DNA of 64,000 bases from Escherichia phage 4E10: the sequence record OQ689735.1; one strand, 5' to 3'. Positions 1,714-39,240 of this stretch are shown piece by piece (position 1 is the stretch's first letter; every line of letters begins with the position of its first letter). The notes under the pieces were generated by a model. That model did no database searches. It was not told where the DNA came from and worked only from the letters and a program-made list of their open reading frames with translations. The translations under genes were made by a program, and so were the position numbers.

Positions 1714-2729
1714 TGTGTTGCCTCTACATATAGCTGGTTTGCATATTGAATAAGTGCTTCACGGTCAGAATCAGTGATGTCTGGAATTGCATTAATGTAT
1801 TCTTCCATCAACGTCTGAAGAGATTGAACTTCAACTTCTTCACTGTCATCTGACTCGACAGAGTTATCAATTTTTGACACAACTCGTAATGAATGCACAA
1901 CTTTTTCTAGTTCAGATTCGAACTTCGTTAGATTTTTGTCTACTTCAGTTACTATAACACGTACTGATAGATTTGTAAAATCTTTATAGTCAATTTTTCC
2001 TTTAAATGGATAATGAATTCTACGATGCCAGGTAGTGTTGTTTGGAATAAATTCCATTCGTTCTGTTTCTGTATCAAACATCCAGAACCCACGAGGGTCA
2101 TTCTCGTCACCTGCAGTTAGTGTCCATGGTGTCCCAATATATCTGACGTTAGCAGCCTCAGAGATAGTATGGAAGTGACCAGACCACACTTCTTTATAAG
2201 TCTTAAGGAAATCAGGTTCAAGACCATGAGATTTCATTCCTTTATAAAAATAAAATCCGTTCAGTTCCCAGTGACCAACGCAAAAAGAAGCAGATGAAGT
2301 TTTGATGTGTTCAAGAATTTCACCAGTATTTTCTTCACACATCCAAGGAATTAAATCAATTAAACATCCGTCAAAATCTACTGTAGTAGGCTTATCATAT
2401 ACTTTAACATTAGGATATTTAGCCAAAAGCTCAGTAGAGGCATTTGGAGTTAAAGTATTTTTAAAGTGCATATCATGGTTTCCTACAACAGTATGTAGGG
2501 TAATACCAGCATCATCAAGCATTTGAACTATTTCACGAGCGAACTCCATAGTTTTATGCGTGATTGCTTTTCGCACATCAAAAATATCGCCGTATTGAAT
2601 CCATGTAGTAATTCCATTTTTCTTAGAATATTCTATTGCTTGTTTAATTCCATCCAACTGAATGGATTGAACCCACTCATCATCGGCTTTAACGCCTAAA
2701 TGCCAATCACCTAAATTTAAAATTTTCAT
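1710..2729 (-). CDS. 47: Recombination nuclease gp47 (Mre11/SbcD-like)
   Basis: 339 aa starting MKILNLGDWHLG with metallophosphoesterase motifs (GDxHxG, GNHD); matches recalled T4 gp47. Confidence 0.93.
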   Translation of the reverse strand: MKILNLGDWHLGVKADDEWVQSIQLDGIKQAIEYSKKNGITTWIQYGDIFDVRKAITHKTMEFAREIVQMLDDAGITLHTVVGNHDMHFKNTLTPNASTELLAKYPNVKVYDKPTTVDFDGCLIDLIPWMCEENTGEILEHIKTSSASFCVGHWELNGFYFYKGMKSHGLEPDFLKTYKEVWSGHFHTISEAANVRYIGTPWTLTAGDENDPRGFWMFDTETERMEFIPNNTTWHRRIHYPFKGKIDYKDFTNLSVRVIVTEVDKNLTKFESELEKVVHSLRVVSKIDNSVESDDSEEVEVQSLQTLMEEYINAIPDITDSDREALIQYANQLYVEATQ

Positions 2730-2890
2730 ATATCAAGAACCGTCATTGAAATGCAAAATAAAATTATTGAAATAAACCCATCTGGTGTGCTAAAGAACCC
2801 AATCCAACATGCTCTAGTGAATAGATAAAATGCGAGAAAAAGTATCACATATCCAAGAAATATCATTATATCAAACTCCGTATAAAGCTA

Positions 2891-2906
2891 AAGGGCCGAA
2901 GCCCTT
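2891..2906 (-). terminator. UUCG-tetraloop hairpin after agt (weak terminator or RNA-stability element)
   Basis: AGGGC-TTCG-GCCCT on the minus transcript directly after the agt stop; no clear U-tract. Confidence 0.35.
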
Positions 2907-4108
2907 TATTTTGTAATAATGTCAAACTGTTCTTTAAAGCAGAAGCTTGAATCTTGATGCTGATACAAAAATTCATATGCTTTTTCTCGCTCACGGTCAT
3001 AAAGAGCTCGGTCAGATGACAGTTCTTTAATACGCTCAAATGTTGATTCCATATCATTTTCATCAAACCAAATGATACCGCTATCATGCGAGGTCAAAGG
3101 AGTATTATCAACACGGAATTTTAAATTTTCGCCAGTAGATTTCCAGAAAACAGGAATTGTTCCACATGCACCAAGCTCGAGATGAGTATATTCTAAAGAA
3201 CGTTGTAGATATTTTTTATCCAACTTACTCAACTGATAACCAAAACCGGATTTACTCATACGTTCAAGCATTTCGCTATTTACATAACGGTCAAGAATTT
3301 GCGTTGGCAAATTAGGAGCAATTTTAATTTGGTCTACTTGATGAAGACGATAATACTCGTATGGAATTCCTTTTTCTTTAATAGGAATGAACGCTGGAGA
3401 ACGTTCCAGACCTTCCATAATAGTACTTAGTCCTGCAGGTTTAAGATGTTTTTCATGAAAATCAAACATCTGATAAAAACCTTTCCATGTAGTCGTGCGA
3501 CCAATCCAACGGTTGATATTCATGTTAATTTCAGAAACATCTTTCCAGTAGGTTGACCGAACCTTCGCAATATCCATAGGAGGCTGAAAGTTATATACGG
3601 TCGGTGCTTCTTCAATATCATCAAACAGAGAAACAGTTTCTGGATACCATTCTTTCATCAGAACTTTATTAAAATCGCCATTATCAGAATGGCTAAAAAT
3701 AACATCAGCTCGACGAACAGTTTCTTCTAATCCCAAATTTCGACGCAAAGAAAGAGAAGAATGGTCATGTTGATAAACTACAACACGAACAGAAGGTTTA
3801 ATGTTATCAATAATTTTTTTATAGTTATTAATAGTGTCTTCTTCAACCGAAGTAGCAGGAACTGAATTGATAATTAGAATATCACAATCATTTACCAGCT
3901 TAAGTGTTTTATCATATTCTTTTGCCAATAAAACCGGAATTGAAAATGATTTATAATCATGCGCGCAATTACGAGTAAATGATTTATCTTTAGCATAAAC
4001 CAAAGTTACTTCATGACCATTCTTAATAAACCAATCACGTTGCTCAAGAGAAAATTTAGTTACACCACAACCTTCAAGACCTCGAGCCATAAAAATACAT
4101 ACTTTCAT
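2906..4108 (-). CDS. agt: DNA alpha-glucosyltransferase
   Basis: 400 aa, MKVCIFMARGLEGCGVTKFSLEQRDWF...; near-identical to recalled T4 Agt with scattered substitutions. Confidence 0.9.
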   Translation of the reverse strand: MKVCIFMARGLEGCGVTKFSLEQRDWFIKNGHEVTLVYAKDKSFTRNCAHDYKSFSIPVLLAKEYDKTLKLVNDCDILIINSVPATSVEEDTINNYKKIIDNIKPSVRVVVYQHDHSSLSLRRNLGLEETVRRADVIFSHSDNGDFNKVLMKEWYPETVSLFDDIEEAPTVYNFQPPMDIAKVRSTYWKDVSEINMNINRWIGRTTTWKGFYQMFDFHEKHLKPAGLSTIMEGLERSPAFIPIKEKGIPYEYYRLHQVDQIKIAPNLPTQILDRYVNSEMLERMSKSGFGYQLSKLDKKYLQRSLEYTHLELGACGTIPVFWKSTGENLKFRVDNTPLTSHDSGIIWFDENDMESTFERIKELSSDRALYDREREKAYEFLYQHQDSSFCFKEQFDIITK

Positions 4109-29586: not shown

Positions 29587-30060
29587 TTATTTGAATGATT
29601 TGACGTACTGAATAGAACCTTTACTATTCACAAAGGCAATTTTACCATTTTTGTTATACATGGTAGCAGTACGCTGATAGCCATAAGTTTGTTTACCAGA
29701 TTGATAACCAACTAATGCAAAATTATCTTCGCCCATTTTATTCTGCTTAGCGCGGATACGTTCATGACCGTGCGCCATAAGAACCTTAGCGTCGCCAGTT
29801 GCAATGGATCTACGAGTTTTTTCATCTTCAACTGTATTAACAAAGTCGTCAAATGAATCAAATTTAGCATGAGATTTATTATACAGTTTTCCATCTACTG
29901 CATAATTATATCCCTGTACATCCATCTCAACTTCTGTACCATCATCCAATACAGCAGTGATTTTTTGACCTTTTTTAAATTTCAAAAGATCAGTAAAAGA
30001 TTCAGCAATAATTTGAGAATTAATAGCTGCTTCAGTAATAAATTCTTGATATGTTTTCAT
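29587..30060 (-). CDS. Internal (head-packaged) protein with capsid targeting sequence
   Basis: N-terminus MKTYQEFITEA is the T4 internal-protein capsid targeting sequence; 157 aa. Confidence 0.7.
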   Translation of the reverse strand: MKTYQEFITEAAINSQIIAESFTDLLKFKKGQKITAVLDDGTEVEMDVQGYNYAVDGKLYNKSHAKFDSFDDFVNTVEDEKTRRSIATGDAKVLMAHGHERIRAKQNKMGEDNFALVGYQSGKQTYGYQRTATMYNKNGKIAFVNSKGSIQYVKSFK

Positions 30061-34410: not shown

Positions 34411-34686
34411 TTATTTCATATTATTGAAATATTCTTCTGCGATTTCGTCGTTATCATGGTAAACTTTAGAAGACAATTTAACATAACCTTCAGCAGTGAA
34501 CATGTTAATCACAACCTTTACAGTATACCACTGACCGTCTTCATTGCCCATTACCGCATAAGTTTCAAACATCGGATGATCAGGACCGATAACTTTAATA
34601 TCATTCACTGTACGACCGAAATCTTCTGAAACACATTTCATAAAGAAGTTGAACAGTTCGCCGTAATTATCCATTTCGTTCTCCAA
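34411..34686 (-). CDS. Hypothetical protein
   Basis: ORF track 91 aa; early promoter at 34718-34747. Confidence 0.5.
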   Translation of the reverse strand: MENEMDNYGELFNFFMKCVSEDFGRTVNDIKVIGPDHPMFETYAVMGNEDGQWYTVKVVINMFTAEGYVKLSSKVYHDNDEIAEEYFNNMK

Positions 34687-34717
34687 GTTGTTTTCTGTAT
34701 CAGTAGTTGATAGTTGT

Positions 34718-34747
34718 ATAGTACCATGGAAGAACGGGGATGTAAAC
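34718..34747 (-). promoter_or_regulatory. T4-type early promoter (conserved module)
   Basis: Minus strand GTTTAC, 18 nt, TGG-TACTAT, conserved leader. Confidence 0.55.
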
Positions 34748-34875
34748 AGTTTTGTGAAAATTTTTTTAAAAAATTTTAGGGAATTCTAGGGTCAGGAGGG
34801 GCAATTAAAAGGTAGGATAATATATTATAAAGGGTATAAACTAAATGATGCCTAGAGAGGCCCGGAAAGGCCTAG

Positions 34876-34911
34876 ATACCAAAAAGCCCCAACCTTTCGG
34901 TCGGGGCTAAG
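34876..34911. repeat. 36-bp perfect direct repeat, copy 1
   Basis: ATACCAAAAAGCCCCAACCTTTCGGTCGGGGCTAAG, identical to 35435-35470. Confidence 0.85.
34880..34908 (-). terminator. Rho-independent terminator (repeat copy 1), with a second hairpin at 34858-34873
   Basis: Minus strand AGCCCCGACC-GAAAGG-TTGGGGCT followed by TTTTTGG. Confidence 0.65.
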
Positions 34912-34915
34912 AATG

Positions 34916-35389
34916 TTATTTGATTTGTTTAGCAGACCAAATGCGGTCTTTAATAATTTTTTGGATGTCTTCAACATACTCAAGAGAGTGAGCATGTGGG
35001 TTATCTTTGAAACTATAAGCACGAGCTAGCTTTTGGCCTTCAGTTTTGATTACTAAAAGCTCTTTAAGGATAGCTTCATATTTGGAGATAATTCCTTTAA
35101 CAATATTTTTTTCTTGTGCAGCTTTAGGATCTGCTTTAGGAGCAGGTTTACCCGAAGCCTTTGCAAAAGCAGCGCCAGTAGCAACTAGACTTTTCCAGGC
35201 CATACTAACCGCATTTCCTGTAAATCCTTCTGCTTTCATGTCGCGAGCAAATTGGAATCGCGATTCGTCAGAAGCATCTTTATAAGAATATTTACCCGCT
35301 GCAATGGCTGCTTTTGCAACAGCTTGAATTTCGGTGCTAGATGCTTCATTTAACACCGCTTCATTTAAAAATTGAGTATATGATTTCAT
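34916..35389 (-). CDS. Internal-protein-like protein with capsid-targeting-sequence-like N-terminus
   Basis: N-terminus MKSYTQFLNEAVLNEA resembles the capsid targeting sequence of ipI (MKTFKEFTS) and of 29587-30060; Ala/Lys-rich; late promoter upstream and terminator downstream. Confidence 0.6.
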   Translation of the reverse strand: MKSYTQFLNEAVLNEASSTEIQAVAKAAIAAGKYSYKDASDESRFQFARDMKAEGFTGNAVSMAWKSLVATGAAFAKASGKPAPKADPKAAQEKNIVKGIISKYEAILKELLVIKTEGQKLARAYSFKDNPHAHSLEYVEDIQKIIKDRIWSAKQIK

Positions 35390-35429
35390 CTTATTTCCTG
35401 TTTTAATTCGTGGATTTAATATACTACTA

Positions 35430-35437
35430 TATTTATA
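35430..35437 (-). promoter_or_regulatory. Late promoter for the gene at 34916-35389
   Basis: Minus-strand TATAAATA about 40 nt upstream of the ATG, immediately after a terminator. Confidence 0.55.
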
Positions 35438-35470
35438 CCAAAAAGCCCCAACCTTTCGGTCGGGGCTAAG
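35435..35470. repeat. 36-bp perfect direct repeat, copy 2
   Basis: Identical to 34876-34911; the pair flanks the gene at 34916-35389. Confidence 0.85.
35439..35466 (-). terminator. Rho-independent terminator (repeat copy 2) closing the candidate ncRNA locus
   Basis: Identical hairpin and U-tract to copy 1. Confidence 0.65.
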
Positions 35471-35776
35471 CCTTGCGGCAACCTTGTCGGGGTTCCACCT
35501 GCTAAGGCAAGTGTTTGTACGAAACGCCGGGATTCGAACCCGGTTATTAAGCAGTTGACGCTACTCAATATTTTTAAAAGGCCATATCTCGACCATATCC
35601 GAACGTTCCGTCAAAAACGCTACTCGACTTACGGCAAAGATATTTCCTCGAATCGATAATTCGGTGCGCCGTTTCTGCTGTGATGTAAGAGGGCATCAAT
35701 AAACGCAAAGATTATTAACGCAATTCCTTACTCAGGGAACATCAGTCCGACGACTTACCGGTAGCGACCCGGTTTC
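35471..35776 (-). ncRNA. Candidate stable structured RNA locus (tRNA-like T-arm and acceptor elements); possibly analogous to T4 small stable RNAs
   Basis: 306 bp with no ORF of 60 aa or more on either strand, between a CDS stop and a terminator; minus strand contains CCGGG-TTCGAAT-CCCGG followed by CGTTTCG, which can pair with CGGAACG about 60 nt upstream. Confidence 0.35.
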
Positions 35777-36127
35777 TTAATATTCTTTTAAAGCATCAAT
35801 CTGTTTACGGCGTTCACGCCATAAATCAATTGCTTCATACGCGGATTCAGCATTTCGAATTGGACGGCATTTATATAAAGACTTGTGATTTTGATATTGC
35901 GTAGATAACGGAATTTTATCTAAAAGGTCTTTACGTTCAAAGTATTCGTAACCATCTAAGCCAAATGAACGATTTTTGAGAAATTGCCAATGACCATATT
36001 CGTTTTCGACATAAACATAATCCGCGTGTTGATAAAGCAAATTAATTACACGTTCAGAAATAATAGTGTCATTGTGATTAAAATAAAATGTTAAATCATG
36101 AACTACTAAATAAACATTACCTTTCAT
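35777..36127 (-). CDS. Hypothetical protein
   Basis: ORF track 116 aa, immediately downstream of tRNA-Arg. Confidence 0.5.
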   Translation of the reverse strand: MKGNVYLVVHDLTFYFNHNDTIISERVINLLYQHADYVYVENEYGHWQFLKNRSFGLDGYEYFERKDLLDKIPLSTQYQNHKSLYKCRPIRNAESAYEAIDLWRERRKQIDALKEY

Positions 36128-36143: not shown

Positions 36144-36219
36144 TGGTCGAGGCAGTAGGGATCGAACCTACGACCTAGGACTTAGAAGGTCCTTGCTCTT
36201 CCTTCTGAGCTATGCCCCG
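36144..36219 (-). tRNA. tRNA-Arg (anticodon TCT)
   Basis: Hand-folded cloverleaf: 7-bp acceptor, D-stem GCTC/GAGC, anticodon stem AGGAC/GTCCT, loop CTTCTAA, T-loop TTCGATC, CCA encoded. Confidence 0.8.
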
Positions 36220-36223
36220 TAAT

Positions 36224-36299
36224 TGGGGTGACCGATGGGAGTCGAACCCATGACTACGAGAATCACAATCTCGAGTTCTACCAACTGAACTACGGCCAC
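36224..36299 (-). tRNA. tRNA-His (anticodon GTG); no encoded G-1
   Basis: Perfect D, anticodon (CGAGA/TCTCG) and T stems; loop TTGTGAT; discriminator C73; residue -1 is U rather than G. Confidence 0.65.
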
Positions 36300-36412
36300 A
36301 TTAATACCTACTCCAACAATCAAGATGTCTTCACACGAAATTAAGAGAAGAGTGATCAGTTCAACCCTATAATCGCGTCAAGTAGATATTAATGTGACAG
36401 TTGTCACAAATT

Positions 36413-36487
36413 TGGCGGACGTGATAGGATTCGAACCTATAACCAATCGCTTAACAGGCGATCGCTCTGCCATTGAGCTACACATCC
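36413..36487 (-). tRNA. tRNA-Asn (anticodon GTT)
   Basis: Clean cloverleaf: anticodon stem ATCGC/GCGAT, loop CTGTTAA, T-loop TTCGAAT, discriminator G, CCA encoded. Confidence 0.75.
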
Positions 36488-36491
36488 AAAT

Positions 36492-36578
36492 TGGTGGGGA
36501 GTGATGGAGTCGAACCACCCGAGTCGCAATGACAATGAATTTACAGTCCACACCGCTACCTCTACGGGATAACTCCCC
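36492..36578 (-). tRNA. tRNA-Tyr (anticodon GTA), long variable arm
   Basis: 87 nt; acceptor GGGGAGT/ACTCCCC; loop CTGTAAA; anticodon stem has two G-U pairs; variable-arm stem GTC/GAC. Confidence 0.6.
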
Positions 36579-36591
36579 TTAATTCTTAATT

Positions 36592-36666
36592 TGGTGGCCC
36601 TGGGTGGAATTGAACCACCATCTGGCGATTATGAGTCGCTTGCTTGAACCTTCCAGCTACAGGGCC
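36592..36666 (-). tRNA. tRNA with CAT anticodon (Ile-lysidine type by T4 analogy, or elongator Met)
   Basis: Acceptor GGCCCTG/CAGGGCC, loop CTCATAA, T-arm GGTGG-TTCAATT-CCACC; sits where T4 has tRNA-Ile. Confidence 0.7.
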
Positions 36667-36667
36667 T

Positions 36668-36743
36668 TGGTGCTGATTGACGGAATCGAACCGCCGACCT
36701 TCTCATTACAAGTGAGTTGCTCTACCTACTGAGCTAAATCAGC
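36668..36743 (-). tRNA. tRNA-Thr (anticodon TGT)
   Basis: Cloverleaf with loop CTTGTAA, T-loop TTCGATT, CCA encoded. Confidence 0.8.
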
Positions 36744-36748
36744 AAAAC

Positions 36749-36838
36749 TGGCGGAGGCGATAGGATTTGAACCTATGAGTCGCCGGAGCGACTGCCGGTT
36801 TTCAAGACCGGTGCATTAAACCACTCTGCCACGCCTCC
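36749..36838 (-). tRNA. tRNA-Ser (anticodon TGA), long variable arm
   Basis: 90 nt, GGAGGCGTGGCAGAGTGG...CCGGT-CTTGAAA-ACCGG; matches recalled T4 tRNA-Ser. Confidence 0.85.
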
Positions 36839-36840
36839 AG

Positions 36841-36914
36841 TCTCCATACAAGGATTTGAACCTTGGACCTCCTGATCCCAAATCAGGCGCTCTACCAAAC
36901 TGAGCTACACGGAG
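36841..36914 (-). tRNA. tRNA-Pro (anticodon TGG); 3' CCA not encoded
   Basis: Loop TTTGGGA; acceptor CTCCGTG/TATGGAG; only 2 nt separate it from tRNA-Ser, consistent with the known T4 Pro-Ser dimeric precursor. Confidence 0.8.
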
Positions 36915-36924
36915 TAAATTAAAT

Positions 36925-36998
<74 letters not shown>

Positions 36999-37003
36999 AA
37001 ATT

Positions 37004-37090
37004 TGGTGCGAGAAGTGGGACTCGAACCCACAAGGAAATCATTCCGCAGCATTTTAAGTGCTGTGCCTTTACCAATTTGACCATTCTCGC
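37004..37090 (-). tRNA. tRNA-Leu (anticodon TAA), long variable arm
   Basis: GCGAGAATGGTCAAATTGGTAAAGGCACAGCACTTAAAATGCTG...; matches recalled T4 tRNA-Leu. Confidence 0.85.
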
Positions 37091-37091
37091 G

Positions 37092-37164
37092 CTGGGAATA
37101 AAGGACTCGAACCTTTGCATCCTGGAATCAAAATCCAGTGCCTTACCAACTTGGCTAATTCCCA
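37092..37164 (-). tRNA. tRNA-Gln (anticodon TTG); 3' CCA not encoded
   Basis: Loop TTTTGAT with stem CTGGA/TCCAG; U1-A72; abuts tRNA-Leu with a 1-nt spacer (Gln-Leu dimeric precursor as in T4). Confidence 0.8.
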
Positions 37165-38119: not shown

Positions 38120-38147
38120 TTTATTCTCCTCGGTAGTTGATAGGGTA

Positions 38148-38177
38148 ATAGTATCACAACTAAAACCCTATGTAAAC
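38148..38177 (-). promoter_or_regulatory. T4-type early promoter (variant of conserved module)
   Basis: Minus strand GTTTAC, 18 nt, TACTAT. Confidence 0.5.
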
Positions 38178-38195
38178 AACTTTGTGAAATATTTA

Positions 38196-38483
38196 TTACA
38201 AAAGATTTTTAGCAATAATCTTGAGATGTGCCGCAGAAATGTGTTTAGCTTTAAACAACGCAGTTTCTTCAGCAGGAGAGATAATGATTGTAGCACCATC
38301 CTTTTTAGCAGACCACCCATCACCTAGGTAAACAGTACCTTTGATTTCTTCGCCATCAACCAAGCTAATCATTGGTTTACCTTCTCGTCCTTTATTTGCT
38401 TTAATAACTTCAGAAGTAAGAGTAGCTTCAGTAATAGTAGAAACCGGGGTAGTTGTAGAAGTAAACTCTTTGAAAGTTTTCAT
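38196..38483 (-). CDS. ipI: Internal protein I (head-packaged; anti-restriction in T4)
   Basis: 95 aa, MKTFKEFTSTTTPVSTITEATLTSEVIKANKGREGKPMISLVDGEEIKG...; matches recalled T4 IPI. Confidence 0.9.
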   Translation of the reverse strand: MKTFKEFTSTTTPVSTITEATLTSEVIKANKGREGKPMISLVDGEEIKGTVYLGDGWSAKKDGATIIISPAEETALFKAKHISAAHLKIIAKNLL

Positions 38484-38513
38484 TTTATTTTCCTAATTAA
38501 TTTTGATGAGATA

Positions 38514-38543
38514 ATAGTATCACTACCTCATCAGCATGTAAAC
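38514..38543 (-). promoter_or_regulatory. T4-type early promoter upstream of ipI
   Basis: Minus strand GTTTAC, 18 nt, TACTAT. Confidence 0.5.
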
Positions 38544-38555
38544 AACTTTGTGAAA

Positions 38556-39240
<685 letters not shown>

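Follow-up and report, generated by a model that had tools for sequence, protein, structure and literature searches.

A putative late gene bracketed by two terminator copies in T4-like phages and its probable loss by recombination between them

In the 64,000-nucleotide stretch of Escherichia phage 4E10 analyzed here (OQ689735.1; hereafter the window), one small gene, gene A, lies between two identical copies of a 36-bp sequence, ATACCAAAAAGCCCCAACCTTTCGGTCGGGGCTAAG (the 36-mer), each of which is a predicted transcription terminator. We consider it probable that gene A belongs to a late unit bracketed by copies of the terminator of the preceding operon, that gene conversion homogenises the two copies while crossing-over between them deletes the unit, and that A is ancestral and was repeatedly lost. 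This account is built on the anatomy of the site, the exact junctions of its indels, four states of occupancy in two genera, the co-variation of the terminator copies and gradients of sequence identity, all observed here.

Anatomy of the bracketed unit

The window is a Tequatrovirus sequence matched by 747 phage records, the closest being RB18 (96%). Its minus-strand order, following the annotations of T4, RB6 and RB18, is 57B, ipI, tRNA.4 to tRNA.2, the tRNA cluster, rnaD, rnaC, the gene A slot, e.8, e.7 and e.6, and the slot is thus the rnaC-e.8 intergenic region. It contains the following features:

34876-34911, minus strand: distal copy of the 36-mer, predicted terminator of gene A, starting 4 nt past its stop codon
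34916-35389, minus strand: gene A, an open reading frame (ORF) of 157 amino acids, RB32ORF132c family, phrog_2280, putative capsid-packaged internal protein (IP)
35360-35389, minus strand: propeptide of gene A resembling a capsid-targeting sequence (CTS), MKSYTQFLNE (residues 1-10), with predicted gp21 cleavage LNE|A
35394-35399, minus strand: ribosome-binding site AGGAAA, read from the sequence, 4 nt upstream of the ATG
35430-35437 (plus coordinates), minus strand: T4-type late promoter motif TATAAATA
35435-35470, minus strand: proximal copy of the 36-mer, predicted terminator of the tRNA/rnaD/rnaC operon and the sole copy in T4, T2 and T6

The two copies reported by the first-pass annotation, on the same strand, are the only exact matches in the window, and no further copy was detected in the 64 kb at up to 3 mismatches. 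The 36-mer had 0 matches in 100 shuffles, which led us to reject a chance repeat; an assembly artefact was rejected as well, the bracket architecture being seen in hundreds of independent genomes. The copies recur with a start-to-start period of 559 nt, and since the neighbouring bases are unlike on both sides, the maximal exact repeat is 36 nt. Read on the minus strand, the 36-mer is AGCCCCGACC-GAAA-GGTTGGGGCU followed by UUUUGGU, with a 10-bp stem in which 7 of the 10 pairs are G-C, a GAAA loop and then the U-tract UUUUUGGU. The predicted energy of this hairpin is -20.3 kcal/mol (z of about -3.3; 1 of 200 shuffles equally stable). The suggestion that each repeat carries a terminator agrees with this architecture, both copies having a GC-rich hairpin and a U-tract on the transcribed strand, and the minus-strand 36-mer is a strong, textbook-like predicted intrinsic (rho-independent) terminator. 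The proximal copy lies 48 nt past the 3' end of rnaC, and is therefore assigned to the tRNA/stable-RNA operon. No early promoter is present inside the 36-mer, there being no -35/-10 pair within or overlapping it.

Between the copies, the minus strand holds TATAAATA, the AGGAAA ribosome-binding site and one 157-amino-acid ORF, which bears out the proposal that the repeats bracket a single CTS gene together with a late promoter. The promoter motif begins 2 bases past the U-run of the proximal copy (UUUUUGG-UAUAAAUA) and shares 3 nt with that copy (35435-35437, the last 3 nt of the repeat on the minus strand). Its end is 43 nt from the gene A ATG, a position appropriate for a late promoter. A T-tract followed by GTATAAATA is kept at the same position in Dhakavirus and Jiaodavirus; the Mosigvirus version is AATAAATA.

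Across 814 records, the 36-mer occurs at 1-3 places per genome. In Klebsiella Slopekvirus (about 100 Klebsiella phages, e.g. KP27 64126-64158), baseplate genes adjoin a 33-nt sequence that shares 88% identity with the terminator; it is probably of similar design but unrelated. Between the distal terminator and the e.8 promoter lies a small conserved hairpin (GGCCC-GGAA-AGGCC, plus strand, 34859-34872), which is kept with variation in empty-site genomes (GGTCTGGAAAGGCTT in T4, GACAAGGAAAGGCC in RB6).

Slot states among relatives and the age of gene A

The slot was compared in detail in about 25 genomes. States were taken from ORF analyses, the identity values of the Mosigvirus left flank being disregarded (the e.8 anchor was mislocated there), and the records 'T4_ev240' and 'T4_ev151', which carry cassettes, were not used as evidence. 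T4, T2, T6, RB6, GEP001 and N2 consist of the left flank, one 36-mer and the right flank, with the flanks intact and no gene A; all three classical T-even laboratory phages are thus among the phages with an empty slot. The single 36-mer of T4, T2, RB6 and T6 is identical to the window copies, and the single terminator of N2 is a Lutter-type variant. These empty sites therefore define a 559-bp indel bounded exactly by the repeat. The first-pass annotation had stated that its reading would be refuted by a single-copy repeat and uniform gene content throughout the relatives; the comparison instead found these empty sites beside some 494 records that carry A.

Another CTS gene, gene B, shares the slot. 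It encodes 187 amino acids beginning MKTYAEFLTE|A and is annotated as RB69ORF149c or RB14ncORF136c. In OE5505, Nami and PhAPEC2 it comes after A, and G4498, FL12 and RB69 have it without A. B joins the terminator of A at ...GGGGCTTTTT|AGTTTGA and has its own, different end hairpin, CCCTATC-TAAAT-GATAGGG, followed by CTTTTT|GGTATCTAGG, the unit being flanked by GGGCTTTTT. In G4498 and FL12, a single terminator links the rnaC flank to the AGTTTGA tail of A+B arrays. This B-only junction would be the expected product of a crossover between the bracket copies of an A+B array.

In the phage collection, the interior of A was found at 494 places in 494 records and that of B at 165 places in 165 records, counts that refer to records and not to independent isolates. 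Each gene occurred once per record, A was never found elsewhere in a genome, and no tandem duplication of either was seen. Hence the proposal of a cassette that recombination can excise, exchange or duplicate holds for loss and replacement, with breakpoints in the terminator, and is not supported for duplication. Where related genomes differ by an indel or a replacement, the endpoints fall at the repeats. Of the 685 records matching the T4 junction, 60 were taken at even intervals; about 7 (~12%) were empty, about 24 carried A only and at least 13 carried B, the remaining records being too divergent to classify.

All four states (empty, A, B and A+B) are present in Tequatrovirus and in Mosigvirus, where they are represented by VIPECOMC06, O157tp3, RB69 and PhAPEC2, respectively. 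The Mosigvirus empty site (vB_VIPECOMC06) bears the Mosigvirus-type terminator. The Dhakavirus bracket is likewise made of that genus's own terminator, AGGCCCTTCCGAAAGGTTGGGCCTTTTTTG, which surrounds a different gene in MX01 and A plus that gene in QL01, and is empty in FB. This other slot gene encodes a 184-amino-acid hydrophobic, non-CTS protein (MKLLKYLSWVLLVPLDF...; MX01 1050-1604, QL01 704-1258). In MX01, A has been deleted between the two ribosome-binding regions, which share about 8 nt of microhomology, TAACTTAG, and the 184-amino-acid gene now stands under the late promoter of A. Within Tequatrovirus, the empty sites lie on differing rnaC-flank haplotypes, with differing terminator variants: the rnaC flank of T4 is 98.3% identical to that of the A-bearing window and just 88.9% identical to that of T2, which in turn is 99% identical to OE5505 (A+B) and 98.7% identical to G4498 (B).

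Gene A has homologues in Tequatrovirus, Mosigvirus, Dhakavirus, Jiaodavirus (Klebsiella) and Yersinia phages, and occupies the same slot in four genera. Identity of A between Tequatrovirus and Mosigvirus is 74.5-76%, compared with 71-74% for the neighbouring ORF116. This match in divergence indicates that A is old and vertically inherited. The sequence comparison thus favours recurrent deletion of an ancestral A over insertion of a mobile gene, and repeated loss at the repeat would be the simplest reading. B differs in this respect: its identity between the two genera is 96%, the same as within Tequatrovirus, from which we conclude that B and its adjoining flank recently crossed genus boundaries. 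The e.8 gene of RB69 (1006-1269) is 93-95% identical to Tequatrovirus and 85-87% to other Mosigviruses, a local mosaic that is consistent with co-transfer alongside B.

The two bracket copies vary together. In Tequatrovirus both have GCCCCGACC...GGTTGGGGC, in Mosigvirus both have GCCCCTTCC...GGTTGGGGC, and in Dhakavirus both have GGCCCTTCC...GGTTGGGCC, a form with a compensatory swap of C-G to G-C. A genus-specific variant common to both copies indicates concerted evolution of the bracket. Since A is as diverged as its neighbours, the bracket should be older than the split of the genera, and substitutions shared by the copies then require either gene conversion between them or a bracket formed anew in each lineage. 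On either route, the two terminators interact by recombination.

Two further observations concern the slot genes themselves. A falls into two deep Tequatrovirus lineages with 85.9% nucleotide identity, as opposed to 97% in the flanking e.8 (window 34916-35389 compared with Nami 1305-1778, ZCEC15 and G8), which suggests fast or diversifying protein evolution. Several genomes carry A and/or B in frameshifted or truncated form (OE5505 2042-3203, RB69 1509-2071, T4_ev240 1606-1899), both genes being broken in OE5505 and B being split into ORF148c and ORF149c in RB69. Such copies fit dispensable genes under fluctuating selection, and sequencing errors are possible.

A recombination model and its alternatives

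The model that we propose would operate as follows. The operon terminator would be followed directly by an autonomous late unit, consisting of late promoter, ribosome-binding site, gene A and the repeated terminator, and the highly active T4-type recombination and replication machinery would act on the terminator copies as direct repeats. Non-crossover exchange (gene conversion) would keep the copies alike within a lineage, while crossover or copy-choice between them would remove the 559-bp unit and leave one terminator, the state of T4, T2 and T6. The B unit would have been added behind the terminator of A, with junctions in GGGCTTTTT, and would have spread between genera by recombination in conserved flanks. 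Finally, mixed infections would reshuffle alleles and B through these flanks, possibly aided by nearby homing endonucleases. The deletion pathway, UvsX-type recombination or replication slippage, is one that we infer. In laboratory evolution, T4 undergoes deletions and tandem amplifications at microhomologies of 6-10 bp (PMC9391042), and GGGC/GCCC motifs are described where deletions in T4 end (Mosig 1998, as cited in PMC2839356). A perfect, hairpin-forming 36-bp repeat at 559-bp spacing is a far better substrate than either.

The opposite polarity, in which the empty T4-type site is ancestral and a mobile cassette of promoter, A and terminator (e.g. a minicircle) integrated at the resident terminator and thereby created the duplication, appears unlikely to us. 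The perfect identity of the window copies, shared by the single copies of T4, T2, T6 and RB6, would be expected from such an event, ORFs flanked by promoter-early stem-loops (PeSLs) do form minicircles in RB49 and phi1 (PMC2839356), B acts like a recent, horizontally spread insertion, and integration into each genus's own terminator would give genus-specific variants on both sides. Against it stand the presence of A in the same slot of four genera with a divergence that matches that of ORF116, and hence vertical descent, as well as the absence of A from any other locus and of any second copy in 494 of 494 records. Moreover, empty sites are the minority and occur in three genera, each with the terminator of that genus, and the terminators flanking A in Jiaodavirus are unrelated. 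It is still less likely that the repeat is an old duplication kept for its terminator function and without a special part in rearranging the genome, with indels arising by ordinary flank recombination in mixed infection. Both copies do look like functional terminators in sensible places, exchange of occupied and empty alleles needs flank homology only (93-99%), and the 36-mer is not dispersed, with just two copies in the window. However, terminator function does not demand an identical stem, loop and tail, as B illustrates with a quite different hairpin; flank recombination can spread but not create deletions that end in the repeat, and such deletions occur in three genera, each with its own terminator variant; and genus-specific substitutions in both copies need exchange between the copies.

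We regard as very improbable a further scenario in which SegB-type homing endonucleases in the tRNA cluster co-convert neighbouring markers and thereby set the pattern of empty and occupied sites, the repeats being incidental. The T4 segB gene lies about 0.35 kb from rnaC, SegB is credited with a role in the preferential inheritance of the T4 tRNA region (work cited in PMC4122927), and endonuclease genes adjoin tRNA-Arg in N2, VIPECOMC06, T6, ZCEC15 and G8. Yet their presence does not track the state of the slot, since ZCEC15 and G8 have A with an endonuclease and RB6 is empty without one, and co-conversion leaves the repeat endpoints and the co-variation of the copies unexplained.

Several points weigh against the model of ancestral gene A, conversion and repeated deletion that we prefer. 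T-even recombination is so free that flank haplotypes cannot strictly count deletions, and reassortment of one old deletion could mimic part of the pattern. Independent re-creation of the bracket in each genus could also give variants shared by the copies. The two copies of Lutter have 4 differences and the distal copy of O157tp3 has another loop, from which it follows that homogenisation is not continuous, and in Jiaodavirus the two terminators around A are unrelated. The motif TATAAATA is not enriched on the minus strand of the window (8 observed, about 7.7 expected), and its putative significance rests on its position and its conservation across genera. As for the protein, searches of Pfam, PDB sequences and Foldseek (PDB and BFVD) gave no informative match, the product of gene A is hypothetical in every source, and no virion proteomics covering the family was found in the literature.

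Protein A, related systems and the neighbourhood of the slot

The name RB32ORF132c is the annotation of the bracketed gene in RB18 and RB51. The N-terminus of its product, MKSYTQFLNE|A, matches the CTS established by experiment for T4 IpII/IpIII, MKTYQEFIAE|A, including the L/I-x-E cleavage motif (CTS concept: PMC9026906 and PMC3012670). A CTS of this type, about 10 residues resembling MKTYQEFIAE, is present in both A and B and is kept in the A homologues of four genera. LNE|A occurs twice in A, at residues 8-11 as the predicted gp21 site and again at residues 13-16, and Mosigvirus and Dhakavirus homologues have LTE|Q at the predicted site. Besides this CTS, the homologues have in common a conserved N-terminal domain of about 60 amino acids, the C-terminal half being replaced in distant members. 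The AlphaFold model of A is all-helical and consists of two modules with a linker rich in Lys, Pro and Ala between them (mean predicted local distance difference test score, pLDDT, 73.7). PHROGs lists phrog_2280 as being of unknown function, the Pfam tag on P0013 was not reproduced, and no papers mentioning RB32ORF132c or RB69ORF149c in this context were found.

In view of the IpII/IpIII-type CTS, protein A is most likely made late, packaged in the prohead core, cleaved by gp21 after Glu10 and injected with the DNA. In that case it would be an accessory and probably anti-defence internal protein; packaging, injection and function are what we infer for it. The likeness to T4 IpI, IpII and IpIII extends to the MK(T/S)Y..F(I/L).E|A motif, to their being small, non-essential and strain-variable, and to their having their own promoters. 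In contrast to them, gene A has no similarity of sequence or fold past the propeptide and lies at another locus.

Sequences of about 70 bp combining an early promoter and an inverted repeat were reportedly described by Repoila et al. in 1994 on the 5' and 3' sides of IP ORFs. As relayed by Arbiol et al. 2010 (PMC2839356), that work found PeSL-like elements at two variable T-even IP loci, and the same source presents these elements as T4 early promoters with weak AT-rich stem-loops. The first-pass annotation had likened the slot to these hypervariable loci, and the likeness holds in principle: short regulatory repeats bracket single non-essential CTS genes, slot content varies among close phages, and recombination between repeats is the proposed shuffling mechanism. 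The locus and the element are different, since the IP-locus elements are confined to ipI and ipII/III, whereas the 36-mer marks a third locus, rnaC-e.8, is identical at 36 of 36 positions and is a GC-rich terminator joined to a late promoter. The window itself offers the comparison, with ipI-flanking repeats that are 80% identical and of early-promoter type. The slot is neither the ipI locus, which lies beside 57B, with tRNA.4 to tRNA.2 and also the tRNA cluster between it and the slot, nor the ipII/III locus beside denV and e, and it qualifies the statement that T-even IP genes stay within two loci (PMC2839356).

The PeSLs of RB49, phi1 and other T4-like phages (Arbiol 2010, PMC2839356; Comeau 2014, PMC4122927) resemble the bracket in that terminator and promoter motifs flank accessory ORFs, that these motifs are where indels and replacements end, and that an integron-like view applies with general phage recombination machinery only. 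They differ in being a multi-copy family dispersed across hyperplastic regions, in their sigma-70-like early promoters and in having experimentally shown minicircles. The 36-mer has the stem-loop of a PeSL, with a late instead of an early promoter, and is found at one locus in two copies (three with B, the stem of the third being different), not as a dispersed family. An integron-like system with a dedicated recombinase was considered and rejected, the neighbouring ORFs matching unknown-function families only. Short-homology deletions of T4 (Srikant et al. 2022, PMC9391042, and Mosig et al. 1998, the latter to the extent that it is cited elsewhere) likewise leave one direct-repeat copy; they are laboratory events at microhomologies of 2-10 bp, whereas the slot repeat is 36 bp long and its deletions are deduced from natural variation. 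The 36-mer contains GCCCC...GGGGC and the junctions of B lie in GGGCTTTTT, which may be compared with the GGGC/GCCC endpoints of Mosig (as cited in PMC2839356).

Among phage proteins, internal proteins encounter the host's defences first, and Ip1-3 are injected inhibitors, each of a distinct GmrSD type IV restriction enzyme (PMC12373910). A, present in about 2/3 of sequenced Tequatrovirus-like records, and B, in 165 records, are candidate injected counter-defence proteins, and they may help explain differences in host range among therapeutic T4-like phages. We offer tentatively the broader idea that rnaC-e.8 could be an unrecognised third cassette locus for injected proteins, a terminator-based late analogue of the PeSLs, its array being organised by a tRNA-operon terminator that was duplicated at the far end and homogenised by gene conversion over genus-level time spans, with A and B as new injected anti-defence effectors. 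If this were true, A and B might, for example, be inhibitors of further type IV restriction variants, and the slot would have been overlooked because T2, T4 and T6 have all lost gene A. The A and B ORFs may be among the '>30 IP variants' counted in earlier IP literature. The slot would also show, in a clear natural case, how a commonplace regulatory element, a terminator, can double as a recombination joint through which accessory genes are gained and lost, and the co-variation of its copies across three genera would be a testable signature of ongoing gene conversion.

The features surrounding the slot are as follows:

34411-34686, minus strand: e.8 (phrog_2678), conserved downstream flank of the slot
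34718-34746, minus strand: early-type promoter of e.8, TTTACA-17-TACTAT, after an A/T-rich tract; unchanged in empty-site genomes
~35518-35656, minus strand: rnaC, beginning 48 nt beyond the 36-mer; coordinates carried over from the RB6/T4 annotations
~35662-35782, minus strand: rnaD, a stable RNA at the distal end of the tRNA operon; coordinates from the RB6/T4 annotations
38196-38483, minus strand: ipI, with the same N-terminus as T4 IpI

In an Rfam search of the region, tRNAs alone passed, and no family was found for rnaC, rnaD or the 36-mer. The ipI gene is bracketed, as in T4, by 54-nt direct repeats (38137-38190 and 38503-38556), whose 80% identical copies have the form GTTTACA...palindrome...GATACTAT, each with a T4 early-promoter motif and an internal palindrome. 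A third, weaker repeat of this type (65%) at 34707-34760 is the e.8 promoter. Directly downstream of denV, the minus strand carries another CTS ORF (29587-30060, 157 amino acids, MKTYQEFITE|A, Pfam DUF7412 with E = 6e-96), an IP variant that stands in for T4 ipII/ipIII at the second of the classical IP loci.

The tRNA cluster (36144-37164, minus strand) comprises 11 tRNAs, compared with 8 in T4, the extra ones being His, Asn and Tyr, and has no segB. Homing-endonuclease or other ORFs are found at differing positions of the cluster in RB18, T4, N2, ZCEC15, G8, T6 and OE5505. ORF116 (35777-36127, minus strand; 116 amino acids, phrog_3355, RB69ORF150c family) lies between tRNA-Arg and rnaD, and is missing in T4 and RB6, where rnaD abuts tRNA-Arg, another presence/absence polymorphism within the tRNA operon.

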